Source: a virus
Taxonomy: Duplodnaviria; Caudoviricetes
Reading direction: 5' to 3' (one strand)
Length of the DNA stretch: 64,000 nucleotides
IMG/VR virus record: IMGVR_UViG_2513237329_000015
Location: 33,052 to 97,051 of that record
The stretch's first letter is position 1; every line of letters begins with the position of its first letter. A program made the position numbers and the translations under genes. Shown piece after piece: positions 16,287-53,407 of this stretch. The notes under the pieces are model-generated. The model ran no database searches and was not told where the DNA came from. It was given only the letters and a program-made list of their open reading frames with translations.

Positions 16287-19200
16287 ATGGCGCAAAGCAG
16301 ACTGATTGAACTAAGCTATTTTGACCCGCACACATCCATCCGCCTGACCACCTATGCGGATACCATCGTGACCGACTACAGTTCCCCAAACCGTATCATC
16401 AGCGCAGTCCGGTTCGGTGGATATCCAGAGGTAGTAAAGGCAATGTCGGACGCGATCTACGGCGGAGCAACCATCGACGTATGTTCAAACGGTGAGACCC
16501 TGCATCTGGACACGCTTCCCAAGGGCTACCGAAGGCAGCTCTCCCACGACGGCATGTACGCTGCGGCCACTCTTATGGCCAACGACGACGCGCAATCCCT
16601 GGATCAGCTAAAGGAGGACACCGCAGAAGATGACTCCCTCGAAGAGAGCAAGCCGCGTAAATGCTATATCTTCTGCCCAGCCGGGGATCAGGACAGGCTT
16701 TTTGAAGAAGTGGATCGGAAAACAGCGGCTCCGCTGATTCCAGAATTTCGGGACTATGTCCTGCAGGAGCTCATCCGCCGGGGAGAGCTGAGAAGGATGG
16801 AGGTATTCTCCGTCAAGGAGAAGATGGATGCCTGGGTTCTCTCTCTGCTGCCGGAGGATAAAAATGTGGTACAGGTGCTGGAGGATGGCCTGAAAACCGG
16901 ACAGATTGCTATACCAGGGGCGACGCCCGGAATGCCGGATGGTTTTGCTCAGGTAGAAAATGTTACCGACTATCTTAGCACCTACGGTATCACGGTCGCC
17001 GACCGTATCCGAAAACAGTTTATCCCCCTGTTTGACCCGGCCTCCGAGCCGCTGTCGGACGAAGTGCTGGACATCAACCGCTATATTCAGCAGAAGGCTG
17101 GATATTCCCTTTATGATGCACAGCTTGCTGTGGCCGAAGCGACCAAGCGCCAGCTTCAGCGCTGCGGCACGGCCTTGATTGTGGCAGAATGTGGAAGTGG
17201 AAAAACGAAAATTGGTACAGATGCTTTGGGTGCCCTCTATGGGCTTGGGGCTGCACAGGGCGGCAAGAAGACCTTCAACCTGGTCATGGCCCCGTCACAT
17301 GTCACAAAGAAGTGGGTGCGTGAGATCGGCGAGACTCTGCCCAACACCTTTGCCATGGTGGTAAAAAGCATCACAGACCTCAACCGGCTTTATGATATGT
17401 ACCAGAACTGTCCTCAGAGTGTTTTTGCGGTGTTCAGCAAGGAGCGCGCCCGGGACGGCTATATGCGCTATCCCGCTGTTCAGTGGAATTGCAGAAAAAA
17501 AGCGTTTCTCTGTCCAGACTGCATGGAACCGGTTGAAATGGAGATCAGCGAGGATGGCACCAGGTACACGGTCAACGCCGACCAGTTTTTCTTTCAGAAG
17601 GAGCACAAAAGGAACCACAAATGCCGCCGTTGCGGCGCAGTTCTCTGGGCACCGGTAGTCCCTGGGAGGCAAATCGACTGGATCAAGATCCCAGAGTATG
17701 GCTGGATCTACCGTTACAGGGCAGGCAAGCATCTCATGCGCACCCAAAACGAGGCGGTATTGGATCAGCTTACCCAAATTGCCGCATTCCCGGAGCAGAG
17801 CTATCCGGTGAGGGGAGCAAAGCGCAGGTTTCCGCTGAGCACCTACATCAAAAGGAAAATGCGCGGACAGATCGATGCAATTCTTTGTGATGAACTGCAT
17901 CAGTACAACAATGCAAGCGGTCAAGGTGACGCCATGGCGGAGCTGTTTGGCGTCTGCAGGTATTATATCGGCATGACTGCCACCTTGATTAACGGGTACA
18001 GCAGCGGCATCTTCCACCTGCTTTACCGTCTGCTCCCCGGCCTGATGCTCAAGGACGGGAAGCGATATCGAAAACCGGGCGACTTTGATGCTGAGTACGG
18101 CGTTGTAGAGAACACCTACGAAATCAAAGATGCAGCCTACAACTCCAATCGAAGGGCCATAAAAAGGAAAACTAAGAGCCGCCAGCTTCCAGGCGTATCC
18201 CCGCTGGTATACTCACGCTTCCTGCTGGAGTATACCTCCTTCCTATCACTTTCCGATATGGGGAAGGATTTGCCGGACTACGAGGAGATCCCGGTCCCAC
18301 TGGATATGCCCGAAGCGGTTTACAGCAGCTACGAAAAGATTGAACATGAGCTTCGGATGGTTTTGAAGACAGACCGAAAGGCGGCGCAAAAGATTCTCTC
18401 TGCCTATCTTAACCTTCTGACCGTCTATCCGGATCAGCCTTACGATCAGCCTGCCATAATACACCCCATTGAGGGGACGGTCATTGCAGAACCGCCCAAC
18501 ATGGCATCCTTTGAGGACATTCTGCCCAAAGAGGAAAAGACACTGGAAATTGTCCGGGAAAAGCTCGCAGCAGGAGAACGGGTGCTCATCTATACCAGTT
18601 GGACCCGGACCGACTCACAGAAAAAACTGCTGAAGCAACTCCATCAGGAGGGCATCTGCGCAGAGATCCTGAAACCCAGCGTCCCCACCGAAAAGCGGGA
18701 GGAATGGGTGGAAAAGCGTGTCCGGTTCGGACTACAGGTACTCATTACCAATCCATCCGTAGTAGAAACCGGGCTCGATTTGAATGCCTTTACGACCCTG
18801 ATCTTCTACTCGATAGGCTACAACCTCTTCACGCTCCGGCAGGCGTCGCGCCGCTCATGGCGTATCAATCAGAGCGCGCCGAGGGTCGAGGTCTATCTGC
18901 TCTATTATGCCAATACCATCCAAGCCAAGGCCGTGAAGCTGATGGCCTCCAAGCTGGCGGTGGCCGGCATTATTGAGGGCACCTTCTCGGAGGAGGGCCT
19001 GTCCGCCATGAGCGATGTGCGGGACCTGACCTCCCAGATGGCCAAGGAGCTCTCACTCGGCATCAAGGACAACGTGGAGGATATTGCCGCGGCGTTCAAG
19101 AAAATGGCGGTCATCAACCCGGGGCGAGAGAATAGACAAAAGCAGCCCGTACAGACCGCGGCGGGCTCCGAGGTATTCTCTATGCCTGCTGTGGAGCATC

Positions 19201-19367
19201 CCGCCGCATCCGGCACACCGGGCGGCATCCGCGCAGTGGAATCCCAGCAGCGACGGATGCTCTATGAAGGCCTGCTGCAAAAAAGAATGGAAGAACAACA
19301 AAAACGCAGGAAAAAGCAGCGCACAGTGGACGAAAACCAACTGTCGCTCTTTGGGCCTGCCGCTTGA
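16287..19367 (+). CDS. Superfamily 2 (SNF2/DEAD-like) helicase with Zn ribbon and C-terminal beta-clamp-binding motif
   Basis: Walker A ECGSGKT, DELH, TAT, ETGLDL, QASRRSWRI; CPDC...CRRC; ends ENQLSLFGPAA. Confidence 0.88.
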   Translation: MAQSRLIELSYFDPHTSIRLTTYADTIVTDYSSPNRIISAVRFGGYPEVVKAMSDAIYGGATIDVCSNGETLHLDTLPKGYRRQLSHDGMYAAATLMANDDAQSLDQLKEDTAEDDSLEESKPRKCYIFCPAGDQDRLFEEVDRKTAAPLIPEFRDYVLQELIRRGELRRMEVFSVKEKMDAWVLSLLPEDKNVVQVLEDGLKTGQIAIPGATPGMPDGFAQVENVTDYLSTYGITVADRIRKQFIPLFDPASEPLSDEVLDINRYIQQKAGYSLYDAQLAVAEATKRQLQRCGTALIVAECGSGKTKIGTDALGALYGLGAAQGGKKTFNLVMAPSHVTKKWVREIGETLPNTFAMVVKSITDLNRLYDMYQNCPQSVFAVFSKERARDGYMRYPAVQWNCRKKAFLCPDCMEPVEMEISEDGTRYTVNADQFFFQKEHKRNHKCRRCGAVLWAPVVPGRQIDWIKIPEYGWIYRYRAGKHLMRTQNEAVLDQLTQIAAFPEQSYPVRGAKRRFPLSTYIKRKMRGQIDAILCDELHQYNNASGQGDAMAELFGVCRYYIGMTATLINGYSSGIFHLLYRLLPGLMLKDGKRYRKPGDFDAEYGVVENTYEIKDAAYNSNRRAIKRKTKSRQLPGVSPLVYSRFLLEYTSFLSLSDMGKDLPDYEEIPVPLDMPEAVYSSYEKIEHELRMVLKTDRKAAQKILSAYLNLLTVYPDQPYDQPAIIHPIEGTVIAEPPNMASFEDILPKEEKTLEIVREKLAAGERVLIYTSWTRTDSQKKLLKQLHQEGICAEILKPSVPTEKREEWVEKRVRFGLQVLITNPSVVETGLDLNAFTTLIFYSIGYNLFTLRQASRRSWRINQSAPRVEVYLLYYANTIQAKAVKLMASKLAVAGIIEGTFSEEGLSAMSDVRDLTSQMAKELSLGIKDNVEDIAAAFKKMAVINPGRENRQKQPVQTAAGSEVFSMPAVEHPAASGTPGGIRAVESQQRRMLYEGLLQKRMEEQQKRRKKQRTVDENQLSLFGPAA

Positions 19368-19379
19368 TTATCAGGAGGA

Positions 19380-21263: not shown

Positions 21264-22379
21264 ATGGCTATGAATGTAACCGTAAACCGGGCCGAATTTC
21301 TGGCGGCGGCAAAGCGGGCGGCATCGGTTGCTCCGCTCTCATCCCCGCTGGAGCCGCTGAGAGGTATCCTGCTGGAGACCGACCGCAGGGAAGGATGCCT
21401 GACTATCAGCGCCACCAACCTGGAGGTTTCTCTTGTCCAAACCATCCCGTGCACCTCTCTGGACGTCGACGCCCTGGTACTCAATGCCCGGCTTCTGGAA
21501 GGGATGCTCGACAAACTGGAGGAAGACAGCGTGACGCTGATCCGTGTGGAGCAGCAACCGGTGGTTTTACTCACCAGCGGCCTTGCCACCTATAGGATAG
21601 GGGTATGGGAGCGCGGCCTCTTCCCGCAAATCGAATCGCCCTATCCGGCGGATACCGTCCTGGTCACTGGAATCCCTGCCATGACCAAGCGCACCATATT
21701 TGCGGTGGGAGAGAAGAAAAATACGCCCCTGCTGCGCTGCGTAAACCTCATGTTTACGCCGAACGGCCTGAAAGCGGTGGGCAGCAACGGAAGCTGTGTG
21801 GTCAGCGCGAAGGGGGACAGCCAGAGTACCGGCAACATCAGCTTGCTTGTGCCGGCATCTTCTCTGGGCAAGCTGGCCCACATGTGTGAGGATACGGATG
21901 AATTCCGGGTCGGAACCACTGGAGACCATATCGTTTTCTTCCGGGACGGACTTCTGTTCAGCGCACGGCTCATGTCCGGCCGGTATATCAATACCGAACA
22001 GCTCATCTCCTCTCTGGTCAACACCTTTACTGTTTTTACCGATGTGACCGATCTGCGTGATGGCCTTTATACCGCCTGCTCTGTGGAAGCGGATGGGAAG
22101 GTCATGCTGCACTTTGAGGGGGACCGGCTCATATTCCGCTGCGACGGCGTCTACGGCAGTGCGGTTTCCCAGATCGACGTGATCCCGTTGAGAGGGACGC
22201 CCCAGGGAGAGTTCTGGTATCTGACCCGTCCGCTCCTGACGTGCCTGGATGCACTTTCCGGTACGGTCCAGCTTGGCACGGCGCAGGGCGGTCTGCTGAC
22301 CATCTCCACTGAGGACGCTTTTTATATGCAAAACGGAGTGCGCCCGCCCAGTGAGCAGCAGTCCTCTAAGGCGGCCTGA
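21264..22379 (+). CDS. DNA polymerase III beta-clamp paralogue 1 (divergent)
   Basis: 371 aa; VNRAEFLAA...LRGILLE...LTISATNLEVSL; ARLMSGRYIN. Confidence 0.8.
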   Translation: MAMNVTVNRAEFLAAAKRAASVAPLSSPLEPLRGILLETDRREGCLTISATNLEVSLVQTIPCTSLDVDALVLNARLLEGMLDKLEEDSVTLIRVEQQPVVLLTSGLATYRIGVWERGLFPQIESPYPADTVLVTGIPAMTKRTIFAVGEKKNTPLLRCVNLMFTPNGLKAVGSNGSCVVSAKGDSQSTGNISLLVPASSLGKLAHMCEDTDEFRVGTTGDHIVFFRDGLLFSARLMSGRYINTEQLISSLVNTFTVFTDVTDLRDGLYTACSVEADGKVMLHFEGDRLIFRCDGVYGSAVSQIDVIPLRGTPQGEFWYLTRPLLTCLDALSGTVQLGTAQGGLLTISTEDAFYMQNGVRPPSEQQSSKAA

Positions 22380-29043: not shown

Positions 29044-29109
29044 CCAAACAACAGACCGGAGGTGGCCTTCCAGGGTTCGGAAGGCCGCCCCGCGAAAGGA
29101 GAATTTAAT

Positions 29110-29619
29110 ATGTCAATCTGTATTATCCATCTGTCCGATGGAAAAGTGGCCGGAGTCTACAGCAATACGCATGAACCCATGGAGGTAATGGTCATGGAGC
29201 GCGACGGCCCGCGGATGACCGAGGAGCAGCAGGCCCGGTACCGCGCATTTCAAACCATGGTGAAGTACGGCCTGGTCATGGACTGGCAGAATCCGCCTTA
29301 TCCTGTGCCGTGTGCTCCAGAATTTGCGCCTAATCTTCTGGATGAGCTGCTTGTCAGGCCGAAGGACGGCACAGCGGACAGGGAACGTCAAAGACTGGAG
29401 CTGTCCTACGCTATGGGCTATCTCGCGGCGCAGAGGAAGCTGCGGGAGACGCTGGAGCGTTTTACCCGCACGGGCCGGACGGTTATGGAGGAGTTCCCGT
29501 CGGAAATCCGGGATTTCTTTGGAAAGTACCAGGATGATCAGCTCAAGGTATTTCTGGAGTTGTGCGCGGAGGCGAACGGTACAGATGCCGCTGGGAGAAA
29601 GGAGTGCGTGAATGGATAA
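29110..29619 (+). CDS. Hypothetical protein
   Basis: GAAAGGAG RBS. Confidence 0.65.
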   Translation: MSICIIHLSDGKVAGVYSNTHEPMEVMVMERDGPRMTEEQQARYRAFQTMVKYGLVMDWQNPPYPVPCAPEFAPNLLDELLVRPKDGTADRERQRLELSYAMGYLAAQRKLRETLERFTRTGRTVMEEFPSEIRDFFGKYQDDQLKVFLELCAEANGTDAAGRKECVNG

Positions 29620-30709: not shown

Positions 30710-30762
30710 TGTGTTATGTTAAAGTCAATCGGAAACCGGCTGCTGATCTGGAGGTATTGAAT

Positions 30763-31263: not shown

Positions 31264-31278
31264 GAAAGGTGATTCTTG

Positions 31279-31587: not shown

Positions 31588-31609
31588 TGCCGGAAGGAGA
31601 ACGAACATT

Positions 31610-38725: not shown

Positions 38726-38733
38726 CTTTCCAT

Positions 38734-41033: not shown

Positions 41034-42127
41034 AAACCATCGTTGACGCGAAGCCATTTTCCGACGCGCTGGCAAACGCCTGTACGGTGCCGCGCAAGTC
41101 CAGGATTCCCTGCCTGAACGAGGTCTACGTCCACGCATACCCGGACAAGTGTATCCTGGCCGCCACAGACCTGACGACATGGTTTATCACAGAAATCCCG
41201 GCCCAGGGGGATGAATTTTCCTTCATTTTTTCCCGAAGCTGCGTTGCGGAGAAAGCCAGCCGGTACTTCTGCGGAGAACTGGTCATGGAGTATGACGTGC
41301 TGGAGAACGAAAAGCGTCCCCGCTCCCGGCTCACCATGCGAAATGGCGCCCGGACCTGCGAATTTGAAGCCAGTTCCGGAGAGGACTACCCCGATCTGCC
41401 CAATGAGGACGGCGCCCCTCTGTTTTCTGTTCAGGCCGGCCGGCTTATGGACCGGATCAAGCGCACCGGATATGCGGCCGAGAAGCCTTCGGCCCATGCC
41501 CGGCCAATCGGCAGCTGCATCCAGTTCAGCGGCAACAGTATTTTTGCCCTGGACGGCCGCCGGATGGCATGGGACACCGATGAAAGCCTTACAGCGCCGC
41601 GGGAGTTCGGCCTCCAGCTGGACTTTCTGGCCCACTTGAAGGTGTTTGGCGAGGCCCGGGTGGATTTCCTCTGGGGAGCGCACTACCTTCAAGTCACAGA
41701 CGGGCGCACGCATCTGTTTTCTCAGCACCGTGAATTATCCGTATTCAACTTCCAGGGAGCAATCCCCCAACGATACGCCGAGCAGTTCACAGTCAGTCCC
41801 AAAGAGTTCCTGCGGGAGCTCACCTACCTAAAGGGTCTCCTTCCCAAGAGGGCAAAGCCGTATGTCTATTTCCACAACGGTACGCTCACAGCGCTGGCCT
41901 CCGGGGAGAAATACCGGACCGCCATATCAATTTCGGGAGAGACGGATTTGACCGTCGGTTTCGATTTGGTCTACATGATGGATGCTTTAAAACAGTTTTC
42001 CGGTAAACCCCGGGTCACGGTGAAGTTCGGCGGAGGGATGTCTCCCATTGTGGTCGGGGCAGAGAACCGCAGCGACCACGCACTGGTACTCCCCGTCTGG
42101 GTAAAGAGTGATGCAGATGTGGCGTAA
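41030..42127 (+). CDS. Beta-clamp paralogue 2 (divergent)
   Basis: 365 aa; LAATDL, DYPDLP, ALDGRRMA, GFDLVYMMDAL, SPIVV, LVLPV. Confidence 0.8.
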   Translation: MKTIVDAKPFSDALANACTVPRKSRIPCLNEVYVHAYPDKCILAATDLTTWFITEIPAQGDEFSFIFSRSCVAEKASRYFCGELVMEYDVLENEKRPRSRLTMRNGARTCEFEASSGEDYPDLPNEDGAPLFSVQAGRLMDRIKRTGYAAEKPSAHARPIGSCIQFSGNSIFALDGRRMAWDTDESLTAPREFGLQLDFLAHLKVFGEARVDFLWGAHYLQVTDGRTHLFSQHRELSVFNFQGAIPQRYAEQFTVSPKEFLRELTYLKGLLPKRAKPYVYFHNGTLTALASGEKYRTAISISGETDLTVGFDLVYMMDALKQFSGKPRVTVKFGGGMSPIVVGAENRSDHALVLPVWVKSDADVA

Positions 42128-42214
42128 CGTACCGAAAATAGAGCGACAGAAGGAAAAGACACAGCCGAATGCCGTGCCCTCGGCCAGAAATTGATTGACA
42201 GGAGTGTAAGAACT

Positions 42215-42595
42215 ATGAAAACCGTCTATATTCCCAAAGGACATACCGTGTGCTATGAGTCCCTGGAAACGGAGCATCTTGTAGTAGAGGGGTGCCTGAA
42301 GACCACCTGCGGCGTCAAGGCCAAGACCATCACGGGCGGCGGCGTGCTCAGCGCCGGCACCACCTCTGCGGATGTAATCTGCCTGGACGAGCTGGAGACC
42401 GGCTCTGTCTTCTGCCGCCGCCTGCTCGCCAGGCGGGTCCAGACGCCGGAGCTGTTCGCTTCGGACAGCGCAGCGGTATCCTGTTTCCTCTCCGCGGCCT
42501 ATGTGGAGACCGGCAAGTTGACCGTGTCCATCAGCGAGACCGACGAGGTGAAGGCTGACGAGGTGATTCACCTCAAACCAAAAAACGCGGTATGA
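42215..42595 (+). CDS. Beta-strand-rich hypothetical protein (bactofilin-like beta helix?); possibly frameshift-fused to next ORF
   Basis: AGGAG RBS; V/T/G-rich; ends just after A-AAA-AAC. Confidence 0.55.
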   Translation: MKTVYIPKGHTVCYESLETEHLVVEGCLKTTCGVKAKTITGGGVLSAGTTSADVICLDELETGSVFCRRLLARRVQTPELFASDSAAVSCFLSAAYVETGKLTVSISETDEVKADEVIHLKPKNAV

Positions 42596-42963
42596 TCGCC
42601 ACGCTTCTGCTCTCCGCGCTGCGTTCCTTCTGGACCGGTCTCACGGCCCGGAACGGCTGGTATGAGCCGATGGACGCGGACTATATGCCAGCGGAATCCG
42701 TACCGGAGGCCGCCGGCCAGTCTGGTGCCGTACCGGAGGTCAATGCCGATACGGCGCATATCCTGGCGACTGACGCAAAACCGGAGGCGGGACAGACTCC
42801 GGAAGCAGAGGACGAGCCGGATGAAGAGCTCAACCGCGTGATCGGCCTGTTCAAGCTGGCCCGGGAATCCGGCTATACGCTCCGTCTCATCCCCGGCACT
42901 CCGGAGGAAAACGCGCCTGCATTTAATTTTCAGGAGCAGCGTGTCATTCCTCCCGCGGCATGA
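42592..42963 (+). CDS. Acidic hypothetical protein (possible C-terminal half of the previous gene)
   Basis: No clear RBS; lies in the -1 frame of the previous ORF. Confidence 0.5.
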   Translation: MIATLLLSALRSFWTGLTARNGWYEPMDADYMPAESVPEAAGQSGAVPEVNADTAHILATDAKPEAGQTPEAEDEPDEELNRVIGLFKLARESGYTLRLIPGTPEENAPAFNFQEQRVIPPAA

Positions 42964-42967
42964 GCGC

Positions 42968-43177
42968 ATGCGGGAGGTTGCCTATGAGGAGCGGCGCGTC
43001 CTGACGGTAGATGGAAAGGCCGTGCTCCAGATCCGAGCCTGCCGGGGGATGCTCCAGCCGGACGGTACGCTCCGTCTGCTGGCATATGCCGGCCGCCGGT
43101 GTCTGCTTTCTCAGGCGGAGACCGGCGCTGCCTCAGCGGGACAGAATACGACCACGAAAAAACGCGCGGCGGCTTGA
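42968..43177 (+). CDS. Small hypothetical protein
   Basis: Fills the operon gap; weak RBS. Confidence 0.4.
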   Translation: MREVAYEERRVLTVDGKAVLQIRACRGMLQPDGTLRLLAYAGRRCLLSQAETGAASAGQNTTTKKRAAA

Positions 43178-43266
43178 ACCGCCCGCGTGGAAGGCCGGGA
43201 AGCAGCAGGCTTCCCGGCCTTCTCAACGTTTGAAATAAAATGATTGAGAATGTGGAGGAAGCAAAT

Positions 43267-43716
43267 ATGTCGAACAAGTCTCAGGAACTCAATATGCGCC
43301 GTCTCGCCGCGCTGCTCAGTCAGGATCTCAGCTACATCGGAGGAGAACGGGAGTGTGGTCCGAATGGGGCCAAGCGAACCTTCCTGAACGTGGGGAAAAC
43401 CTTCCTGCGGGCCTTGGCAAAGGATCTCTGCCTGCATGATGTGACGGTCCGATCCAACGCCGGTGGGATCGCCGTATCCGGTGAATGCTGCCTTTACGGA
43501 ATGTGGGAAAACAACGGCATCTTTATTGAGATCTCTCAAAGCTGCTGCAGCTGGGTTGGGCCGGTCCTGTACCGTACCATCCGGAACGCCCACGACCACA
43601 AGGGCGGGCACAGCCGGTATCTGAGTTTGAACGATTTGAAAAAGTGCTCCTACAATGAGGTCTTGGAGTGTTTTTCCTCCTTGCGGAAGGGGTACGGCTG
43701 TGAGCGGGCCGCTTGA
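43267..43716 (+). CDS. Hypothetical MGE protein
   Basis: GGAGG RBS; SNAGGIAVSGE motif. Confidence 0.7.
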   Translation: MSNKSQELNMRRLAALLSQDLSYIGGERECGPNGAKRTFLNVGKTFLRALAKDLCLHDVTVRSNAGGIAVSGECCLYGMWENNGIFIEISQSCCSWVGPVLYRTIRNAHDHKGGHSRYLSLNDLKKCSYNEVLECFSSLRKGYGCERAA

Positions 43717-45112
43717 GGAGCGGGATGAGCAGCAGTTCTACGCCTCCGAACGGCTCAAGGACTGCCAGCACATGATTCTGCGTATGGCGCAGTCCCTGGT
43801 GGTGCAGAGGGCCAGGGTTGAAAAGGCCCGTAGCGCCGGCCTTGCCGCCGCCCGGGACGCCTATTCTGATCTGCAGGAGGTGCGCGGCTATCTGCTGGAA
43901 GCGCTCTCCGACGTCCGGCCCTGTCTCATGGAGGTGGAGGAGTACAAGCTGGCTGCTGCCGCGGGACAACTCCACGCGGGGCTTGCACACTTCGATCTGA
44001 TGTCAACGGCTTATAAGCCGGTCTATGACGCACTCTGCGGCTTTGCTGGTTCTCTTCCAGTCAGCGGTACCACCAATGCCGCCGTGGTCGGACGGCTTAT
44101 GAACAATATCAAGCTGGGGTATTACCCCACCGACCCGGACAATATCGCACTGCTGCTCCGGGGTATTCAGTTCCCGGAGGGTGTTACCACCAACCTCCTT
44201 GATCCCTGCTGCGGCTGCGGGAAGGCCCTGCGGCAGCTCGCCGAGGGGAACAACTGCTTTGCCTACGGCGTGGAGCTGGACGAAAGCCGCGCCGGGGAGG
44301 CGCAGACCCGCCTGCACCGTGTAGGCTTCGGCAGCTTTTTCTTCAGCCGGATCAGCCGTGAGGCGTTCCATCTGCTGTTTCTGAATCCGCCTTATCTGTC
44401 CGTACTCAATGGCAGCGGCGGGCAGTCCCGGCATGAAAAGCGGTTTCTCATTGAGAGCATCGGCCACCTAACCTATGGGGGCCTGCTGGTCTATGTGATC
44501 CCCTATTACCGCCTTACCCCGGACATCTGCCGTATCCTGATGGACAATTTTGAGGCTCTCTCTGTCTGGCGCTTTACCGATGGGGAGTTCAAGCGGTTCA
44601 AGCAGGTGGCCGTCCTGGGCCTTCGGAAGCGGAGAGAGACGGAGCCGCCGGATACCCTGTGGCTGGAGCAGTACGCGGTCTCCCCCGCATCCATCCCCAG
44701 CATTTCAGACCTGCCGGAGCACCGGTATGCGCTTCCAGCTTACCCCCTGGAGGTCACGACCTTCATGGGCGAGAGATTCAATCAGAAGGAGCTGGAGCAG
44801 CAGCTCAAGCGATCCAACAGCTTTCAGCAGCTTATGGCCCGCAGCGAACTGGACAACGATGTAAAACGGCCGCCGCTCCCGCTCTCCATCGGGCAGATCG
44901 GCCTTGTGGGCGGCTCCGGTATGATCAACGGGCTCGTCCGGTGCAATTTTCCACACGTCATAAAGGGACGCATTGTCAAAGTGATCCGGACGGAGACGGA
45001 GGAAAAATTCAGCGCTGAAGGTAAACACCTGGGATCGGAGATCCGCGAGACAATCGCCAACAAAATGATCTTCAATGTTCTGACGCCTAACGGATTTAAA
45101 TCCCTGGCATAG
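43700..45112 (+). CDS. DUF6094-like SAM-dependent DNA amino-methyltransferase
   Basis: GYYPT, LDPCCGCG, GVELD, FLNPPY. Confidence 0.85.
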   Translation: MSGPLEERDEQQFYASERLKDCQHMILRMAQSLVVQRARVEKARSAGLAAARDAYSDLQEVRGYLLEALSDVRPCLMEVEEYKLAAAAGQLHAGLAHFDLMSTAYKPVYDALCGFAGSLPVSGTTNAAVVGRLMNNIKLGYYPTDPDNIALLLRGIQFPEGVTTNLLDPCCGCGKALRQLAEGNNCFAYGVELDESRAGEAQTRLHRVGFGSFFFSRISREAFHLLFLNPPYLSVLNGSGGQSRHEKRFLIESIGHLTYGGLLVYVIPYYRLTPDICRILMDNFEALSVWRFTDGEFKRFKQVAVLGLRKRRETEPPDTLWLEQYAVSPASIPSISDLPEHRYALPAYPLEVTTFMGERFNQKELEQQLKRSNSFQQLMARSELDNDVKRPPLPLSIGQIGLVGGSGMINGLVRCNFPHVIKGRIVKVIRTETEEKFSAEGKHLGSEIRETIANKMIFNVLTPNGFKSLA

Positions 45113-45122
45113 CGAGGAGGAA

Positions 45123-45410
45123 ATGATGTTATTTACGGAAACGTCCGGACGGTTCTCACCTGGCCGTCTTATCGCGAGCGAAGACCTGCTAGCATGTGTG
45201 GCAAAAGAAGAGCTTCTAAACGCCTATTGCCATCACCTGAATTGCGACTGGGGTGACGTCCCGGATTCAGTTCAGCAGAGCAACGATTATGCACTTAGCC
45301 ACGGCGAGGCTCTGCTCTCTGTCTATACATCAACCGGCGGAATCCGGTTTTTGATCGTCACGGAGGCGGACCGGTCGGCCACGACCTGTTTACTTCCAGA
45401 AGAATATTAA
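45123..45410 (+). CDS. Conserved small plasmid/ICE protein
   Basis: H..CDWGDV...N..AL..G..LLSVY...IVTEADRSATTCLLPEEY. Confidence 0.8.
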   Translation: MMLFTETSGRFSPGRLIASEDLLACVAKEELLNAYCHHLNCDWGDVPDSVQQSNDYALSHGEALLSVYTSTGGIRFLIVTEADRSATTCLLPEEY

Positions 45411-45427
45411 GAAACGAGGTATGCTAT

Positions 45428-45997
45428 ATGGCTATGACAGCGCTTCCTCTGGCGTTCATTGTTCCGGCTGAGGAGCTTCCCGCAGACGACCGCACGGCGC
45501 AGGGCGCCGTATGGTCTACTGTGGCCAGCCTGCTTCAGTCTGGCCTTGGCAGAAAATTCTCCAAATTCTATCCCCAGCTCCGACTGGAACAACAGGGAGG
45601 TTACGCCCCCTTCGGCGTGGTTCTCGGCCGAGCTGCCCCGCCCCTGTTTCGGGAGCTCTACCGTAAGGCGCTGGACAGGCAGGCTGGCGCGATCATGCAC
45701 CATACGCTGAACACGCTGTCCCGCTTGAATCCAGATCAATTTTTTGAGGAGGACGGTACCATCGTCTGTCCGGCCGTTATAGATGGCAGCGATCCTGACC
45801 TGATGTTTCACGGCCTCTGGCATCTGGCGATGCAGCAGGGCGAGATTCTTCCCGACTGCGGTGTTTACCATGTCGCGCAGAAACGGGCGTCTATTGAACC
45901 GAAGGAAGTGCAGCAGACGCTGGCGCACCCCGAACGTTATGCCCTCTGCATGGTCTGCCTGGAGCCGCCGGAGGTGCCGTGTGATGATGAGATTTGA
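45428..45997 (+). CDS. Hypothetical protein
   Basis: GAGGT RBS; overlaps next gene. Confidence 0.65.
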   Translation: MAMTALPLAFIVPAEELPADDRTAQGAVWSTVASLLQSGLGRKFSKFYPQLRLEQQGGYAPFGVVLGRAAPPLFRELYRKALDRQAGAIMHHTLNTLSRLNPDQFFEEDGTIVCPAVIDGSDPDLMFHGLWHLAMQQGEILPDCGVYHVAQKRASIEPKEVQQTLAHPERYALCMVCLEPPEVPCDDEI

Positions 45998-46283
45998 CCC
46001 GGAGCAGTTCTTCCGGCTTTTGCAGCAGCTTCCGCCCAGCCAGCCCATGTCGGAACCGGCGGAGCACAGCGCCTACCTCCAGCGGGAGGTATTCGACAGG
46101 CTGAAGAACCACGAGCTCATCGATCTGACAAAGCTGGACTGGGATGCGTTCGACCTCAGCCACGTGACGCCGGAGGACTATGAGCACAGGTACAAAATCA
46201 ACCAGTCGAACTGGCTGCAGGGCTTTAACAGGATGCTTCAAGGCATAGAGCCTGCGGCGCTGGAAAAGCAGGTATTCTTCTGA
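45984..46283 (+). CDS. Hypothetical protein
   Basis: GGAGGTG RBS. Confidence 0.6.
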   Translation: MMRFDPEQFFRLLQQLPPSQPMSEPAEHSAYLQREVFDRLKNHELIDLTKLDWDAFDLSHVTPEDYEHRYKINQSNWLQGFNRMLQGIEPAALEKQVFF

Positions 46284-46294
46284 GGAGGGGGACA

Positions 46295-46837
46295 ATGTAC
46301 GACTACGATGACTACGAAGAGGATGTACTTCTGGTGCTGCGCGTACTGAAATACCTGCACGGCGTACAGACCAGGGAGGAATTTCTGAAAACACTCAACC
46401 ATTGCACAGAGGCAGGGATGGATGAGCTGTATGAGCTGGCAGATACCTTCACCTGGGAGCTTTTCCCCGCAGCGGTATTTGATATAGATGAAGAATGGGA
46501 TGCCACAACGATGTCCTTCTCTCATCCCAATATAGACTGCTATCTGTCTTTGACCGGCCGGCTGGACACCACACATGGGCACAGGCTTGCCCTTCGGAAA
46601 CGCCTGGAGGACATCGCGCTGTATTTCTGCATGGTGACGGACTCAGTGACAGGAGTGCAGTTCTCCCCTATGGACGAATCGACCTGCGTAAAGCTGCGGT
46701 TCTCTCCGGACTGCTGCGATACGCTGGGCTTTGCCAATTCCATGGTGGATCTGCTGCGCTATCTCGACCGGGAAAACCGGCGCCTGGAGAAGCTGTGCCT
46801 GGAACAGCAAAATGAAAGTGATAAGGAGGCGGCCTGA
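46295..46837 (+). CDS. Acidic hypothetical protein coupled to the E2 gene
   Basis: GAGGAGG RBS; TGATG overlap. Confidence 0.7.
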   Translation: MYDYDDYEEDVLLVLRVLKYLHGVQTREEFLKTLNHCTEAGMDELYELADTFTWELFPAAVFDIDEEWDATTMSFSHPNIDCYLSLTGRLDTTHGHRLALRKRLEDIALYFCMVTDSVTGVQFSPMDESTCVKLRFSPDCCDTLGFANSMVDLLRYLDRENRRLEKLCLEQQNESDKEAA

Positions 46838-47526
46838 TGGCTCGGCCAGAAAACAGAGATTATACGCGGGACTCCTGCATCCGGTGGTCCCCGGAACGGG
46901 GTTTGCTCATTGTGGAGGAGAAAAAGGAAGATGGGGTGATATCCTGTCAGCAGATTGACCCGTTTGACCTCTATTGTGCGCTCAACGAGGGTTATAACAA
47001 CAAGGATTTTCTCTCCAGCGGCTTCCTGCCGGAGCACTGCCTTTCCGTGGCAATGAACGGCTCGGAGCGGTACTTTGTGCTGTGGAACCCGGAGCTGCGG
47101 GCCGATCTGACCTATTTGAATACGGAGTACCCGGACTTCCCGCTCCCCCGGCTGGTGTTCGGTATCCGCATGCTGAACACCGGACGGATCGCGGAGTGTT
47201 CCATCGGCGTTGCAGCGGATGAATCCCCAAGGCCGGAGACGGCGATGTATGAGTATCCGTTCTCCAACGTTCATCCGGACCGGAAGCTGTGTGCGGGCAA
47301 TAACGTCCTGCCCAGATACAAAAATATCCTGAGCATGAAGCACTTTCCCCGCTATGTGCTGGGCCTGCCGGACAACGATGATCTGTACGACCGGGAGCAC
47401 AACCGCCTCGGACTTGGCCATGCCGAGCTGATGGAACACCTGAAGGACAAAGACCCCGCGTATTACTACACGGATGTTCTGGTGCCCCGCGGCGACACCC
47501 TAGGGGACTTTATCATTGGGAGGTAA
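46837..47526 (+). CDS. Prokaryotic E2 family D protein (PRTRC B-like)
   Basis: SGFLPEHCL, FPLPRLVF, YPFSNV...LCAGN with putative catalytic Cys. Confidence 0.78.
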   Translation: MARPENRDYTRDSCIRWSPERGLLIVEEKKEDGVISCQQIDPFDLYCALNEGYNNKDFLSSGFLPEHCLSVAMNGSERYFVLWNPELRADLTYLNTEYPDFPLPRLVFGIRMLNTGRIAECSIGVAADESPRPETAMYEYPFSNVHPDRKLCAGNNVLPRYKNILSMKHFPRYVLGLPDNDDLYDREHNRLGLGHAELMEHLKDKDPAYYYTDVLVPRGDTLGDFIIGR

Positions 47527-47529
47527 GGC

Positions 47530-48576
47530 ATGGAACAACGAACCGCCAAACAGATCCAGGAGGCCCTGGCAAAGCCCTTCGCAGCGGGCGACCTGGAATG
47601 GAGGCTGCAAAAGGCATATCCCCAGGAGATGCGCGGCATCGCCGTCCCTTATGTGACCAACCGGGCCATTCAGTACCGGCTGGACGACGTGGTGGGCGTG
47701 GAAAACTGGTACAACAGATTCAAGCCCTGGCATAAGTTCGTTGCCAAGGTACCGGGCAAGGAGGACTACCGAAAGCTGGAGGACAAGGAGATTATCTCCC
47801 AGCTCTGCGGCATCGCCATCTACTTTGCCGAGCGCAAGGAGTGGGTCTGCAAGTGGGACGGCGCCGAGCTTTCCGAGATCGAGCCTGTAAAGGGCGGCCT
47901 CTCCGACAGCATGAAGCGGGCGGCCTACCAGTGGGGCATCGGCCGGGTCCTCTACGACATGAACACAGTATGGGTCGATATTGAGAAGAAAGGGAAGACC
48001 TGGTTCATCCGGGACGACCAGCGCCAGAAGCTGGACAACGCATACCTCAAGCTGCTTGACCGGCTGGGCCTGAAGCCCATGCCCGCAGGCGGGACCGAGG
48101 CACTGCTGGTGCCCAAGGACATCCCGGAGCAGGAGGAAGACGGAGCGCCCCCCGACGCACCGGGCTCTGTCCAAAGCACCCCGGTCCCGGAGCAGAAGCC
48201 GGGCGCGGCCTGTTCCACGCAGCCGGCCGCACCATCTGCGGCCCCAAAGGGCAGCACGGCCAAGGCTGAACAGGCGCAGGTCAGCTCTGCCGCAGGAAGT
48301 CGCTCCCGCACACCATCGTCCGCGCCCTCTCAAAACACGTATGAGTACCGGGTGGCGGCGTCCAAGGTACAGAAGGGGATGAATACGGTCAACACGCTGG
48401 TGCGCCTGGAGGCGGCCGACGGGAAACAGGTGGACGCCTTCGCCCCCGGCGAGCATCACGCCCTGACTGTGGGAACGCTGCTGACTGGCGTGCGTCTGTC
48501 CGTCCGCCGGCAGGACACCGTTGTGTTCTATGTGCTGGAGGACTACCGGATCGCAACAGCCCCCCAGGCGGCGTAG
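47530..48576 (+). CDS. Rad52/Rad22-family single-strand annealing protein
   Basis: LAKPF...LEWR...YVTNRAIQYRLDDVVG..NW...KGGLSDSMKRAAYQWGIGRVLY. Confidence 0.88.
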   Translation: MEQRTAKQIQEALAKPFAAGDLEWRLQKAYPQEMRGIAVPYVTNRAIQYRLDDVVGVENWYNRFKPWHKFVAKVPGKEDYRKLEDKEIISQLCGIAIYFAERKEWVCKWDGAELSEIEPVKGGLSDSMKRAAYQWGIGRVLYDMNTVWVDIEKKGKTWFIRDDQRQKLDNAYLKLLDRLGLKPMPAGGTEALLVPKDIPEQEEDGAPPDAPGSVQSTPVPEQKPGAACSTQPAAPSAAPKGSTAKAEQAQVSSAAGSRSRTPSSAPSQNTYEYRVAASKVQKGMNTVNTLVRLEAADGKQVDAFAPGEHHALTVGTLLTGVRLSVRRQDTVVFYVLEDYRIATAPQAA

Positions 48577-48623
48577 GAATCTGTGATAAATATTTGAGAA
48601 AATTTTTGGAAGGGAGACGCGCT

Positions 48624-50502
48624 GTGAAAAAAAATAGAGCAATTCTACATCACGGAGCTGACACTCGCCGGATTTAAGAACTACCTGGAGCCGACCACCT
48701 TTGTTTTCGGCAATCCGACGGTCATCACCGGTGGAAATGGCCAGGGCAAATCCACCCTTGCCGACGCGGTCGCCTTCGCAGTCACCGGCCTTCCCTTTTT
48801 TGGGGAGCGCGGCATCGACCGGCTTTACAATGACGCCATGAAACAGCAGATGGAGTTGTCGGTCCGGCTGCGGTTTGTGGACCAGGACGGCGCGGCGCAT
48901 GAGCTGTACCGTCTCCGGAAAAACAGCCGCATGGTCATCACCTATGACGGCTATGACATCCGACAGACCGACCTTACGGACATGTTCGGGGAACGCGATG
49001 TGTTCCTCTCCATTTTCAACCCGCTCTATTTCATCGAGGTATTGGAGGACGATGGGAAAAACCTTCTGGAGCGGTATCTGCCGGTGATCCCCCATGAGAC
49101 GGTTCTCTCACAGCTCTCCGAACACGTACAGGAGAGTCTGAAGGACGAGGAGATCCTGTCCCCGGAGGTCTATCTCAAGAGGAAGCGGGAACAGATCCGT
49201 GAGCTGGAGGAACAGATCATCTATCTCACCGGGCAGAAGGATCTCACCTGCCTTCAGGGCCGGGAGTCCAGCAAGGCGTCGGCTTCCCTGAATGAACAGC
49301 TCCAGTCTCTCCAGGAGGAGGCCGGTCATTTAGAGCAGAAACGCTTTTCCGGTCTGGAACCGAAGGAGATGGAACGACAGCTTGTAGAGCTGAGCCGACA
49401 ATACGACGAAACATCCCGCGACCTTCGGAGCGCGGAGCGTTTTTCCGAGATCGACGGGCAGATTTCAGAGTTGACCCAAAAAGTTGCCGCCCGGCAAGCG
49501 GAGTCCTACCAGTCAAAATTTTTGCAGCCTTTGGCTGATATCTCGGCCCGTGTCAGTGAGTTGGGACGGCGATATAAACAGGAGCTGCACAACTTCCAGT
49601 CCTTTGCACCCGGCGTATGCTGCCCTACCTGCCATCGCCCCATCACGGAGGCGGCGCTGGAAGAGGTCCGCGCTGAGACAGAGAAATTTGTCCAGGCGCT
49701 CATTGCACAGGGCAAAGAGCAGCAGGCTCAATTCGCAGAGCTGAAAGCGCTGGACCAGCAGGCAGCGGAAACCTTTGTGCAGTTCAAGCAGGATGATCTG
49801 AGGGCCTGGTCGGAGGAACTGGAACGCCTACGGAGTCAGCGCCGGGAACTGGAGGAGGACCGCCGGGGTGAGGAACAGCTGGAAACATTAAGGGAACAGA
49901 TCCAGGAGCTGACCTCTGCGCTGGAATACGGCAATCTGACACAGGCGGGTTATGACCGCCTGAAAGAGTGCAAGGAGGAGATCCGGGAACTGGAGGCTAA
50001 GATCGAAGCGAATCAGACTACGGCTGGATGGACGGAGGCGGAGTTTGACGCCCAGATCGAAAATACCAGAAGCCAGATCACAGAACTCAGGGAGAAGATC
50101 TCAGATGCAATCATCTACATCAGCAAGCGCACAGAACTGACCTTTGCCCCTCTAAAGCTGAACCGGGTGGCCATTTCCCTCTACGACATTGTAAAAAGCA
50201 CAGGAGAGCGCAAGGACGCCTTCCGTTTTACCTACCAGGCGGAGGGCTGCACGAAGGGCCGCCTCTATAAGTGCCTCTCCCACTCCGAGCGGCTGCGGGC
50301 CGGCATGGAGGTGTCCGAGATGGTGAAGCGGCTGACCGGGCGGAATTACCCGGTATTTGCGGATGACATGGAATCCATTGAGGATTTGTCGAACGTAAAG
50401 CCCACCGGGCAGGTCATCATGGCCAGGGTTGTTCCCCATGCTCCCCTCTCCGTCCAACCGCTCCAGCCCATCCAGGCATCTGCTCAGGCACAGGCGGCAT
50501 GA
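48624..50502 (+). CDS. SMC/Rad50(SbcC)-like ATPase with Zn hook; GTG start out of frame by one base at an A8 run
   Basis: In-frame upstream extension IEQFYITELTLAGFKNY...GGNGQGKST; coiled coil with CPTC; LSHSE, VFADDMES. Confidence 0.82.
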
Positions 50503-50529
50503 GCCGCATGGGGCGCCTGACACACGGGC

Positions 50530-51588
50530 ATGACCTATGAGAAACTTCCGATCGTGGACGCGGCCAGACGGTGCGGGCTGATGCTGGACGCCCGGACGTT
50601 GCGGCGCGAGGAGATCGAGGCGGCCTGCCCCTTTTGCGGCGACCACGGGCCAGGGAAATACCATTTAAGTCTCAACACCAGCACCGACCAATACCGCTGC
50701 AACCTCTGCGGCGCCCGCGGCAACAGTGTCACGCTGTACGCAAGGCTGCATGGGATCGGCAATAAAGAGGCGTACCGGGCGCTGGCGGAGGGCTCAAAAA
50801 TCTATCCGATGCCGCATCCGCCGGCGTCCCCAAAAACAGAGCGGCAGCCACTTGCGCTTGCGCAGCGGCACGCCGCCTACACCACAATGCTGGAGCACCT
50901 CGTACTGCTGGACCAGCACAGGGAGAACCTGCTGGAACGGGGGCTCTCAGAGGAACGCATCCAGCAAAACCAATACCGCAGCATGCCGGAAACGGAACAG
51001 GGGAGGCGGCTTCTCGCCGCCCTCCTCCGCTCCGGCGGACAGGAGCTTCAGGGGCTCCCCGGCTTCCGTACCCGCTATGGAGAGTGGACGCTCAGCGGCC
51101 CCAAAGGTTTTTTGATCCCGGTACGTGACAGGGACGGTCTCATTCAAGGGCTCAAAATCCGTCTGGACGACGCCGGCAAGCCGGACCGAAAGTACCGCTG
51201 GCTGTCCACACGGGGCGCCCCCAACGGAACCAGGAGCTATTCCTGGGTCCATGTGACAGGGGACACCAGTCGGAAACGGGCCTATCTGACCGAAGGGCCG
51301 CTCAAGGGGGATGTGGCGTCTTTCCTGGGGAGCGACGCGCTCTTCGTGTGCATTGGCGGCGTCAACGCCATCGGCGGCCTTCGGAAAACGCTGGAGGGTC
51401 TGAAGGTCAGGGAGGTCGTGGAGGCCATGGATTCAGACCAGATGACCAATCCTCACGTGAGAGGCGCGGTTCTCGCCATGCGGAAGGAGGTACAGCGTAT
51501 CCCCGGCATCCGCTATTATAAATACACCTGGGACCCGGCTTACAAGGGTGTGGACGACTATCTTCTCAGCCGCACGGCGATGAGATAA
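50530..51588 (+). CDS. CHC2 zinc finger + TOPRIM (DUF3854-like) primase
   Basis: CPFC...CNLC...GN; IPVRD; KYRWLS; LTEGPLKG; DSD; KGVDDYL. Confidence 0.85.
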   Translation: MTYEKLPIVDAARRCGLMLDARTLRREEIEAACPFCGDHGPGKYHLSLNTSTDQYRCNLCGARGNSVTLYARLHGIGNKEAYRALAEGSKIYPMPHPPASPKTERQPLALAQRHAAYTTMLEHLVLLDQHRENLLERGLSEERIQQNQYRSMPETEQGRRLLAALLRSGGQELQGLPGFRTRYGEWTLSGPKGFLIPVRDRDGLIQGLKIRLDDAGKPDRKYRWLSTRGAPNGTRSYSWVHVTGDTSRKRAYLTEGPLKGDVASFLGSDALFVCIGGVNAIGGLRKTLEGLKVREVVEAMDSDQMTNPHVRGAVLAMRKEVQRIPGIRYYKYTWDPAYKGVDDYLLSRTAMR

Positions 51589-51763
51589 ATATGAGCTAAC
51601 TTCCGGTTCAGGAGAACGGACTCATTTTGAAGCAGCCCTGCGGCTCAACGAGGAGGAAAAGAGCTTGCCACTGCTGTCCTACAGCCATTGTATCACGGGC
51701 ATCTCATAGCCTGCTGATACCTGATGTTATTGACTTTTTATTTAGTATACAAGGAGGATATCC

Positions 51764-52381
51764 ATGTTGAACGAAAATACTCTGGTAAAGGTGACTGCGT
51801 CGGAGGACCGCATTTCCTTCCGGACAGTCAGCCGAAGCTATAAATCCCCGCATCGCTTTGTAATTCTGCGCAGCGCCCTGAAACGGTTGGCCGATGAAAG
51901 CTGTATGGTATCCGATCTCAGCTCCTTTGCCAGTCTTTGGCATGTTCAAGGGACCAACGATCTGCACATCTGCTTCTCATGGCTCTCCGATCACAACGGC
52001 ACGTTAAGCGGACGGAAAGAGCTGATACGGCTCCCGTTTTGTGAAACGATGCGCTTTCTCCACGACAGCATTTCCCCCGACGGCCCGAAAGAGCGGGCGT
52101 TTCTGTCTTTCGGTCGGCTCGCAGACCCCTGGTTACATTTTGACGCGCCGAACAATTTGAAAAATGTCCTGGCGGTTCCGTTGCTGCGCCGGAGGCTGGT
52201 TCGCTTTTTGCGCGATCATTTTCACTGGAGGAATGGAGGCGAAGTTCGATTTTTCGATGACTGTGATCCGTTCAGCTTCACCTTTCGGGAGTATCTGCCA
52301 GGAAGAACGGGTCTGTGCGGCGGCGTCGTCCTGCACAGAGAAGAAGACCTGAAAAACGCGTACTACTCTTTGCACACATAA
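51764..52381 (+). CDS. Hypothetical MGE protein
   Basis: AAGGAGG RBS; ends GGVVLH...YSLHT. Confidence 0.7.
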   Translation: MLNENTLVKVTASEDRISFRTVSRSYKSPHRFVILRSALKRLADESCMVSDLSSFASLWHVQGTNDLHICFSWLSDHNGTLSGRKELIRLPFCETMRFLHDSISPDGPKERAFLSFGRLADPWLHFDAPNNLKNVLAVPLLRRRLVRFLRDHFHWRNGGEVRFFDDCDPFSFTFREYLPGRTGLCGGVVLHREEDLKNAYYSLHT

Positions 52382-52432
52382 CCGTTAACAGACAAACCAT
52401 AATCATCAACTTTGAAAGGGGCAATCAGCTTT

Positions 52433-53407
52433 ATGGGAAACCTGTTTCATATGAACGACTTTGTGGCCGCCTCCCAGGGAGACGCCCAGAATATGCTGGG
52501 GAAGTTCCTCTACTTTTCCCTGTCAAACCTGCTGGTGGAAAAGGCGCAGCTCTCCGAGCTGTGCGAGAGCATGGGTATCTCCTATTCTGGCGGCACCCGG
52601 CTTTCGGTGGCTGACGCCTTCCGCTCCGCCACCGGGGACATCAAGGAGCGCAAGCCCGTCACGGTTGCCGGCGAGACAAACATTTACCTCGTCTATTGCC
52701 GGGACAACAAGCACACGGCGGATGCGCTCTCACGGGAATTGGTGAAGGAGACGCTGAACCAGAAGACCAACCGCTATGAGAAGCTGGCCAACATCACCTG
52801 CGACCGGAAGGATGGGCAGATCTACTGTACCAACATCGTAATGGACCCGGATATTGACGTGCAGGCCCGCTGCCGTCAGGCGGAGGAGCTGTTCGAGCTC
52901 TATCAGCGGTGCGCCAACCGCAAGCAGATCGAGACCATCTGTGCAAACTTCCTGCGGGAAATGGAGGCCACCAAACTGAGCATCAACGGACACCTGTACT
53001 TTGTTCCCAGAAGTCACATGGAGAAGGTGGATATCTTCGAGGATTTCATCGGGCTGCTGGGGGGCATGAACCGGAACAATACCCCTCTTGTCGTCAACAG
53101 CTTTTACATCATTGACGACGAAAAACAGCGCAGCAAGATGGCTGAGGAGTTCTACAATGCGGTCAAAAAAGAGATCACCGAGTATCAGGAGCGGTGCGAC
53201 TACTTCATCAAGAGCAACTGTCAGAGCCCGGCCGTGATGGAACGCTGGGTTTTGAAGGTGCGCGGCCTGGAGGAGCGCAAGCGCCACTATGAGGAGATCC
53301 TCCGCCGGGAGTTGAATGGGCTGGATGAGGAGTTCTCTACGCTGAAGCTGCTCTCACAGGAGCTTCAGGTGAGGGCGAATGCCATCCACCTTCAAAAGGC
53401 AGCCTAA
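52433..53407 (+). CDS. DUF6744/DUF3150-like protein
   Basis: LGKFLYFS, DAFRSAT, GHLYFVP, C-terminal coiled coil. Confidence 0.6.
   Translation: MGNLFHMNDFVAASQGDAQNMLGKFLYFSLSNLLVEKAQLSELCESMGISYSGGTRLSVADAFRSATGDIKERKPVTVAGETNIYLVYCRDNKHTADALSRELVKETLNQKTNRYEKLANITCDRKDGQIYCTNIVMDPDIDVQARCRQAEELFELYQRCANRKQIETICANFLREMEATKLSINGHLYFVPRSHMEKVDIFEDFIGLLGGMNRNNTPLVVNSFYIIDDEKQRSKMAEEFYNAVKKEITEYQERCDYFIKSNCQSPAVMERWVLKVRGLEERKRHYEEILRRELNGLDEEFSTLKLLSQELQVRANAIHLQKAA

Follow-up and report, generated by a model that had tools for sequence, protein, structure and literature searches.

Genetic organization of the window

The window analyzed here is a stretch of 64,000 nucleotides (positions 33,052 to 97,051) of the Caudoviricetes record IMGVR_UViG_2513237329_000015, and it constitutes the last 64 kb of a single phage or prophage contig of 97,051 bp and 56% GC. 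Close relatives of this genome reside as prophages in gut Oscillospirales, for example in Oscillibacter, Flavonifractor, Lawsonibacter, and Ruminococcaceae. The window carries a module in which genes for E1-like, E2-like, and JAB proteins are encoded together with genes for replication and recombination proteins, and many of the module products terminate in two alanine residues (AA). This terminus is a conserved tag under selection at the protein level, and the host unfoldase ClpX is tentatively favored as its reader.

The module spans 38650-53407 in the gene order JAB, E1, clamp, unknowns, DUF6094 methyltransferase, Prok-E2_D, Rad52, SbcC-like, primase-like, and DUF6744, and all the window genes described below lie on the plus strand. 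The JAB (JAMM) gene (38650-40269; Pfam Prok-JAB) encodes a distant relative of PRTRC_A (49.2 bits against an NCBIfam cut-off of 101.8) that has no AA tail in the window and in which the motif E389, H439-x-H441, and S449-x-x-D452 is conserved across 57 sequences. The N-terminal third of this protein consists of a long run of near-identical P-P-A-A-P-V-T repeats, and its orthologues at other loci are much shorter (318-500 amino acids (aa)). The ThiF-like E1 adenylyltransferase (40161-41033, with a probable true start at 40266; Pfam ThiF) reaches 91.8 bits for PRTRC_ThiF (cut-off, 144.75), ends in RVAA, and retains the G-x-G-G-x-G-G loop, RQN, D163, and three cysteine residues across orthologues. 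The E2-like Prok-E2_D protein (46837-47526; Pfam PF14460), a distant relative of PRTRC_B (35.3 bits; cut-off, 131.45), possesses a conserved C152. As judged from sequence conservation, the catalytic motifs of all three proteins are intact. Because the scores fall below the NCBIfam cut-offs, the block is best described from its sequence as a distant PRTRC-type E1/E2/JAB module whose components are relatives of the PRTRC families and not members, and it matches operon type 6d of the Ubl/JAB/E1/E2 systems defined by Iyer et al. 2006 (PMC1779556). A literature search on Prok-E2_D, PF14460, DUF6744, and PRTRC returned no functional study.

β-Clamp paralogue 2 (41030-42127; dnaN-like in Pfam and NCBIfam) follows the E1 gene and ends in DVA in the window. 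Next to it are two overlapping open reading frames (ORFs) in different frames (42191-42595 and 42592-42963, with an ATGA overlap at 42592), the second of which ends in PPAA; in relatives, this pair is a single gene encoding 214-282 aa, and 42191-42963 is therefore either a frameshifted or split gene or the site of a programmed shift. A small protein of 69 aa (42968-43177; RAAA), two proteins of unknown function at 43240-43716 (ERAA) and 46295-46837 (KEAA, with the GGAGG of the E2 gene overlapping its last codons), and the untagged DUF6094 methyltransferase (43655-45112; Pfam DUF6094, E 8e-177) are also encoded upstream of E2. Downstream of E2 lie the genes for the Rad52-family annealing protein (47530-48576; Pfam Rad52_Rad22; PQAA), the SbcC/Rad50-like protein (48838-50502; PHROG 77, SbcC-like; AQAA), the primase-like protein (50530-51588; Pfam Zn_ribbon_DnaG, PHROG primase), which ends in TAMR in the window, and the DUF6744 protein (52412-53407; Pfam DUF6744, E 2e-113; QKAA). 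The E2 and Rad52 genes are three bases apart in the window, and database proteins of 525-564 aa that join Prok-E2_D and Rad52 domains are probably products of read-through or fusion of the adjacent genes.

Four further AA-ended proteins are encoded outside the module. The superfamily 2 helicase (16287-19367; Pfam Helicase_C, ResIII) has the C-terminus NQLSLFGPAA, and β-clamp paralogue 1 (21264-22379; Pfam DNA_pol3_beta) ends in SKAA. The 3' end of a diversity-generating retroelement reverse transcriptase gene (41-445) encodes the terminus YRAA, and a tail protein of 912 aa encoded upstream of the window, at 29063-31801 of the genome, ends in PPKAA and provides the twelfth AA terminus. At the helicase C-terminus (window 19338-19367), the family motif ENQLS[I/L]F fits the β-clamp-binding consensus QL[S/D]LF, which suggests from sequence that the helicase may dock on one of the phage clamps.

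Neither a ubiquitin-like (β-grasp) protein nor an NCBIfam hit to PRTRC protein C was found for the module, and a ubiquitin-like domain hidden in a tailed protein was rejected for the two candidates that were modelled with AlphaFold2 (AF2). The model of the 69-aa protein, in which two glycine residues and the terminal AA are the only residues invariant across 10 orthologues, shows a three-stranded sheet and a disordered tail (predicted local distance difference test score (pLDDT) of the tail, <50) and not a β-grasp. The Rad52 C-terminal domain (approximately 70 aa, 48310-48576) is modelled as an all-β OB-like fold, the final block of which has a mean pLDDT of 67; its best but weak matches are Teb1, RPA70N, PriB, and SSB, and the model suggests that it may be a fused module for binding single-stranded DNA. 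The tail lacks secondary structure in both models, including the last six residues of Rad52.

Enrichment of C-terminal Ala-Ala

The genome-wide ORF set (n = 93) was obtained with a self-trained codon model, and the gaps were filled by hand; uncertain start sites leave the finding untouched, because only the stop codon matters. The frequency of AA dipeptides inside the proteins (0.0122) predicts 1.14 AA termini among the 93 ORFs, and 12 were found (binomial p 1.9e-9). They are concentrated at 16287-53407, where 10 of 45 ORFs are AA-ended (p 1.6e-10), and the 2 of 48 ORFs outside this span represent no significant excess (p 0.12). Eight of the 12 tails fall within the 17-gene E1/E2/JAB module. 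All eleven AA termini named in an earlier sequence-only reading of this DNA are present, and the enrichment over chance that it had claimed turned out to be stronger than stated.

Amino acid composition was ruled out as the cause of the tails, since the excess of alanine is confined to the last two positions: in the genome ORF set, alanine occurs 18 times at position -1 and 24 times at position -2, and 4-8 times at each of positions -3 to -9. The sequence-only reading had also held that overlap with a ribosome-binding site explains only some of the endings, and this was borne out. The GGAGG Shine-Dalgarno sequence of an overlapping downstream gene accounts for six E-A-[V/Q/A]-stop endings, but no such context is present at the termini of the helicase, Rad52, the SbcC-like protein, DUF6744, the reverse transcriptase, and the tail protein.

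Conservation of the tail and selection on residues

Loci from named bacterial genomes of Oscillospirales were fetched via the E2 gene (80 fetched, 79 counted; E2 identity 40-64%), and their ORFs were assigned to the window families by BLASTP. In these 79 loci, 331 of 631 module proteins (52%) were AA-ended, compared with 21 of 493 flanking ORFs, many of which we read as divergent module genes adjoining E2. On two host chromosomes that carry the module (400 kb each of Massiliimalia and Clostridium leptum), AA termini were found in 4 of 651 genes (0.6%), approximately as expected from composition. The two comparisons that the sequence-only reading had proposed, with the genome-wide and host background and with homologous proteins, therefore gave a clear difference in the former case and retention of the tail, family by family, in the latter.

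The tail was found in 69 of 71 Rad52 orthologues, 43 of 47 DUF6744 orthologues, 35 of 38 members of the 42191 family, 16 of 18 of the 43240 family, all 21 of the 46295 family, all 6 small proteins, 30 of 40 E1 orthologues, and 24 of 28 clamp 2 orthologues, all 28 of which end in alanine. The SbcC-like orthologues ended in AA in 46 of 60 cases, with six further termini in AG and six in AS, and the primase-like orthologues in 24 of 54 cases. In about half of the primase-like proteins, AA is extended by one or two residues (AATM, AAAM, AAI, AAAK, AAAQ), an arrangement that resembles ubiquitin precursors needing trimming. The tail was less frequent in JAB (14/56), rare in E2 (2/74), and absent from the DUF6094 methyltransferase (0/59), the 45123 family (0/18), and the 45428 family (0/34). 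In a sub-lineage comprising Flintibacter porci and Flavonifractor sp. An306, E2 and JAB are also AA-ended.

Conservation extends to more distant homologues and to proteins encoded outside the module. Among Rad52 homologues of approximately 50% identity, 114 of 120 end in AA although the residues before the tail vary. The helicase homologues end in [A/V]A in 119 of 120 cases, following the conserved ENQLS[I/L]F and two further residues. For clamp 1, 50%-identity clusters supplied 80 full-length representatives with 23-55% identity to the query, of which 67 have a Lys-rich tail that closes with AA. Three syntenic viral contigs with Rad52 identities of 49, 43, and 32% and GC contents of 55, 53, and 44% carry AA termini in 7 of 18, 6 of 21, and 5 of 23 ORFs, respectively. 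The tails are of variable length and low complexity, and the residues at -3 and -4 vary, being mostly K, R, Q, or E. Each of the four alanine (GCN) codons and each of the three stop codons occurs at these termini, with GCA alone over-used as the last codon (0.42, compared with 0.19 internally), and selection therefore acts on the residues. The terminal AA is thus a protein-level selected tag; stated precisely, a short, flexible tail of polar or basic character ends in [A/V]-Ala-COOH. A nucleotide motif or ribosome-binding site was ruled out as a general cause, because the presence of the tail goes with the protein family and host genes are without it.

Whether the tail can be separated from E1/E2/JAB was also addressed with DUF6744, which is rare (7 of 400 Clostridia genomes). 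In five further best-matching genomes, the DUF6744 gene is again AA-ended, but co-occurrence could not part the tail from E1/E2/JAB, because an E2_D match lies 4-5 kb away in four of the five. Of 50 E2 loci, 4 have no E1 within 10 kb; two of them carry E1 elsewhere, and one recently truncated module retains the tails. A truncated module, consisting only of E2, Rad52, SbcC, and primase genes with the tails kept, is found in Flavonifractor sp. An306, the genome of which gave no E1 match with the E1 query used.

AA termini in other mobile elements

Plasmids and phages were searched with the module E1, and the phages lambda, Mu, and 0305phi8-36 were also counted. The phage-like plasmid 3 of Bacillus thuringiensis HD1002 (235 kb, 36% GC), which encodes E2_D and ThiF proteins with an E1 approximately 32% identical to that of the window, has 10 AA-ended proteins among 104, compared with 0.33 expected (p 2e-12), although alanine makes up 5.6% of its residues. 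These ten proteins are encoded within 75 kb (54-129 kb) and include SLOG, Thg1-like, RecA, dUTPase, DEAD helicase, RuvC, PRPP synthetase, NAPRTase, and excision endonuclease proteins. Other elements with E1/E2/JAB genes are without such a bias: AA termini occur in 0 of 64 proteins of Bacillus phage KLEB27-3, whose own PRPP synthetase and NAPRTase, orthologous to the tagged plasmid enzymes, lack the tail, in 1 of 69 of Acinetobacter phage ME3, and in none on the plasmids of C. baratii, C. perfringens, and Lysinibacillus. The PRTRC cassette of Cupriavidus shows no clear AA bias against its high alanine background.

Among the elements without E1/E2/JAB, phage lambda (NC_001416) has an AA bias (7/64, p 1e-5), and Mu (0/50) and B. 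thuringiensis phage 0305phi8-36 (0/66) have none. The lambda proteins concerned are the portal B, Bet, Ea10, Ral, NinB, NinC, and NinG, with an ATGA overlap with the next gene in four of the seven cases; a GeneMark ORF of lambda at 29118-29285 is also AA-ended. In 19 phage contigs that share only the Rad52 N-domain, approximately 5 AA termini were found in approximately 522 ORFs. Because the bias is absent from these Rad52 phages, Mu, and 0305phi8-36, it is no general habit of phages, and it is also not exclusive to E1/E2/JAB elements. No protein common to only the AA-positive elements was found in the sampled regions.

Possible readers of the AA tail

A possible function of the AA tail is that of a ClpX-class C-terminal tag read by the host, an assignment that we favor at somewhat below even confidence. 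The Ala-Ala-COO- terminus would be bound by the axial pore of the host AAA+ unfoldase ClpX, working with ClpP, in the manner known for ssrA tags and RqcH Ala-tails. The tagged set comprises about ten unrelated DNA-transaction families (helicase, two clamps, Rad52, SbcC-like, primase-like, DUF6744, E1, and unknowns), and recognition of the tail could shorten the half-lives of proteins whose DNA complexes are long-lived and potentially toxic, or could lead to ClpX-driven disassembly of those complexes. The activity of the tagged proteins could then be limited to the period of module transcription. The gene for clpX scores above the cut-off in all three carrier genomes, the host transfer-messenger RNA (tmRNA) tags end in LCAA and ALAA in two of the three, and the unstructured tails of the modelled proteins are consistent with this assignment. 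LVA is a functional variant of the ssrA tag, and LexA (as its N-terminal fragment) and RecN, which ends in LAA, are native proteins bearing ssrA-like degrons. The basic tails recall C-motif-2 of MuA. Ala-Ala-COO- is the most important determinant for ClpXP, and related AA-ended degrons are present on native proteins and on RqcH Ala-tailed products (PMC7652416). In the case of sigma-AntA, AA is conserved in 67 of 71 orthologues, and ClpXP degradation occurs only with AA (PMC7142297). Furthermore, RecN and other SOS repair proteins are ClpXP substrates according to references given in PMC5442325.

Several points weigh against this assignment. Degradation of the tagged proteins, and hence a "timer", is something that we infer. 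Position -3 is mainly occupied by K, Q, E, or R, whereas ssrA has Leu there, and the 19 Rad52-bearing phages, Mu, and 0305phi8-36 lack the bias. In addition, the tags cluster in a module that encodes enzymes acting on C-termini without an evident ubiquitin-like substrate, which a tag for ClpX alone leaves unexplained, and the tagging of half a module, E1 included, is without a described precedent. The sequence-only reading had proposed an ssrA-like ClpXP degron; this remains the best-supported explanation in view of PMC7652416, PMC7142297, the host clpX, and lambda, but that reading missed the tails as a hallmark of the E1/E2/JAB module, which opens a competing explanation.

That explanation, which we consider unlikely although worth serious attention, is that the tail serves as a substrate handle for the E1, E2, and JAB of the module itself, in a many-substrate version of the "cGASylation" by Cap2/Cap3. 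E1 would adenylate the C-terminal carboxylate, which would be passed to the E2 cysteine and then to an amine on the target, and JAB would reverse the conjugation or expose the tail. The presence of all three enzymes with intact catalytic motifs, the absence of a β-grasp protein among the candidates checked, and the concentration of eight of the 12 genomic tails in the 17-gene module all fit this route, as do the facts that no C-termini with conserved small residues other than the AA tails are present in the module, that E1 itself is tailed whereas E2 and the methyltransferase are almost never tagged, and that the primase-like termini resemble ubiquitin precursors. A distant E2_D/ThiF module is also found among the AA-tagged proteins of the B. 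thuringiensis plasmid, and the Gly/Ala C-terminus of CD-NTases (cGAS/DncV-like nucleotidyltransferases) is conserved only with Cap2 and Cap3, the Ala-ended ones being conjugated (PMC10097602). However, lambda is equally biased without E1/E2/JAB, five other E1-bearing elements (KLEB27-3, ME3, and three plasmids) show no enrichment, and the tags of the Bacillus plasmid span at least 75 kb and are found on metabolic enzymes far from E1. Valine occupies -2 in 75 of 120 helicase homologues and is bulky for an E1 adenylation channel, and ten different "modifiers" in one system would be unprecedented. The concentration of tags in a module with C-terminus-directed enzymes and no visible modifier keeps this route alive, and it also motivates a combined model, to which we assign only a small chance, in which AA is a ClpX degron and E1/E2/JAB reversibly cap or conjugate the same C-terminus, thereby removing or restoring the free carboxylate. 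Equally speculative is its consequence that the element may alternately stabilize and destabilize its replication and recombination proteins, through a ubiquitin-like system that masks C-degrons instead of adding them.

A different reader of element or host origin could also dock on the tail, for example a clamp, a PDZ-type or tail-specific protease, or a packaging or transfer factor, so that the tail assembles or localizes the proteins and does not destabilize them. The clamp-binding-like QLS[I/L]F before the helicase tail, the frequent Lys/Arg-rich tails, and the predominance of DNA-complex components among the tagged proteins are compatible with such docking, but it is decidedly unlikely given that Pfam, PHROGs, and NCBIfam revealed no candidate reader domain in the module, that the clamps themselves are tailed, and that the same tail is present on unrelated enzymes in lambda and the Bacillus plasmid. 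As for a by-product of nucleotide constraints at gene junctions (Shine-Dalgarno overlap, ATGA, or termination context) or of composition, the six GGAGG-explained endings, the preference for GCA, and the four ATGA overlaps in lambda could be accommodated. This origin is nevertheless very improbable and is largely excluded, since all alanine and stop codons are used, the tail persists in families such as Rad52, DUF6744, and the helicase, in which the gap to the next gene varies or is long, and the Shine-Dalgarno and ATGA context fixes just two of six bases; moreover, E2 and methyltransferase genes of the same operon almost never encode the tail, and host genes of the same composition do so at 0.6%. 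The weightiest evidence comes from the bias of lambda without E1/E2/JAB and from the dispersal of the Bacillus plasmid tags over metabolic and repair enzymes far from E1. The [A/V]A consensus and the known biochemistry agree with it, and together these points favor the universal host reader ClpX, which may either degrade or remodel the tagged proteins. The same AA bias in the recombination and nucleotide-metabolism proteins of lambda and the B. thuringiensis plasmid lends further support to a ClpX tag.

Relation to known systems and implications

The tails share with ssrA-type C-motif-1 degrons such as that of sigma-AntA, and with the RqcH Ala-tails of Firmicutes, the terminal AA, the free carboxylate, the flexible tail, and conservation across orthologues; ssrA-like native degrons are likewise used on DNA-damage and repair proteins, and the host reader is present here. 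Whereas sigma-AntA is a single regulator, the tails described here mark 52% of the proteins of one mobile module, spread over about ten unrelated families. As putative degrons, they differ from ssrA at position -3, where a polar or basic residue usually takes the place of Leu or Val. MuA offers a parallel for remodelling, since it is a phage DNA-transaction protein whose basic C-terminal tail (C-motif-2), ending in small hydrophobic residues, is read by ClpX to remodel a stable DNA complex. Unlike the tagged proteins described here, MuA ends in AI and not in AA, and no AA bias is seen across the Mu proteins (0/50).

In type II CBASS (cyclic-oligonucleotide-based antiphage signaling system), a folded CD-NTase with a conserved Gly or Ala on a disordered tail is adenylated and conjugated without a β-grasp (PMC10097602; bioRxiv 10.1101/2022.03.31.486616). 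The module of the window resembles this system in combining E1, E2, and JAB without a β-grasp modifier. In contrast to Cap2/Cap3, however, its E1 and E2 are separate proteins of the PRTRC/Prok-E2_D lineage, the candidate substrates are many instead of one, two alanines are conserved instead of one Gly or Ala, and the association of the tail with E1/E2/JAB is not exclusive, as lambda has the bias and some E1-bearing phages do not. With PRTRC systems the module shares a ThiF-like E1, an E2-like protein B, and a JAB protein A on mobile elements. It departs from them in its scores far below the curated cut-offs, in being embedded among clamp, Rad52, SbcC, and primase genes, and in that the ubiquitin-like protein C was not found here.

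AA-ended ClpX degrons are already known for single proteins; the literature searched contained no description of a module tagged as a whole, across about ten unrelated families and with conservation reaching down to 23-30% identity. Should the tails prove to be ClpX tags, instability would be hard-wired into an entire mobile module for replication and recombination, prophages would have a new way to confine dangerous DNA-transaction proteins to a short period, and dozens of natural substrates would become available for studies of ClpX specificity in gut Firmicutes. If they are, instead or in addition, handles for E1/E2/JAB, the long-missing substrates of PRTRC-type bacterial ubiquitin-like systems would be identified, and the "cGASylation" principle would extend to many proteins. 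In either case, the tail is a simple sequence marker for the functional core of widespread gut elements.

Additional observations

A megablast search of the gene run containing the helicase and clamp 1 against phage records returned no match. Upstream of this run, the ORFs at 11722-13587 and 13355-15454 are overlapping or tandem paralogues, both of which end in RAYQEFSK followed by TAG, and the encoded proteins weakly resemble an S-layer-homology protein encoded on a Lysinibacillus plasmid.

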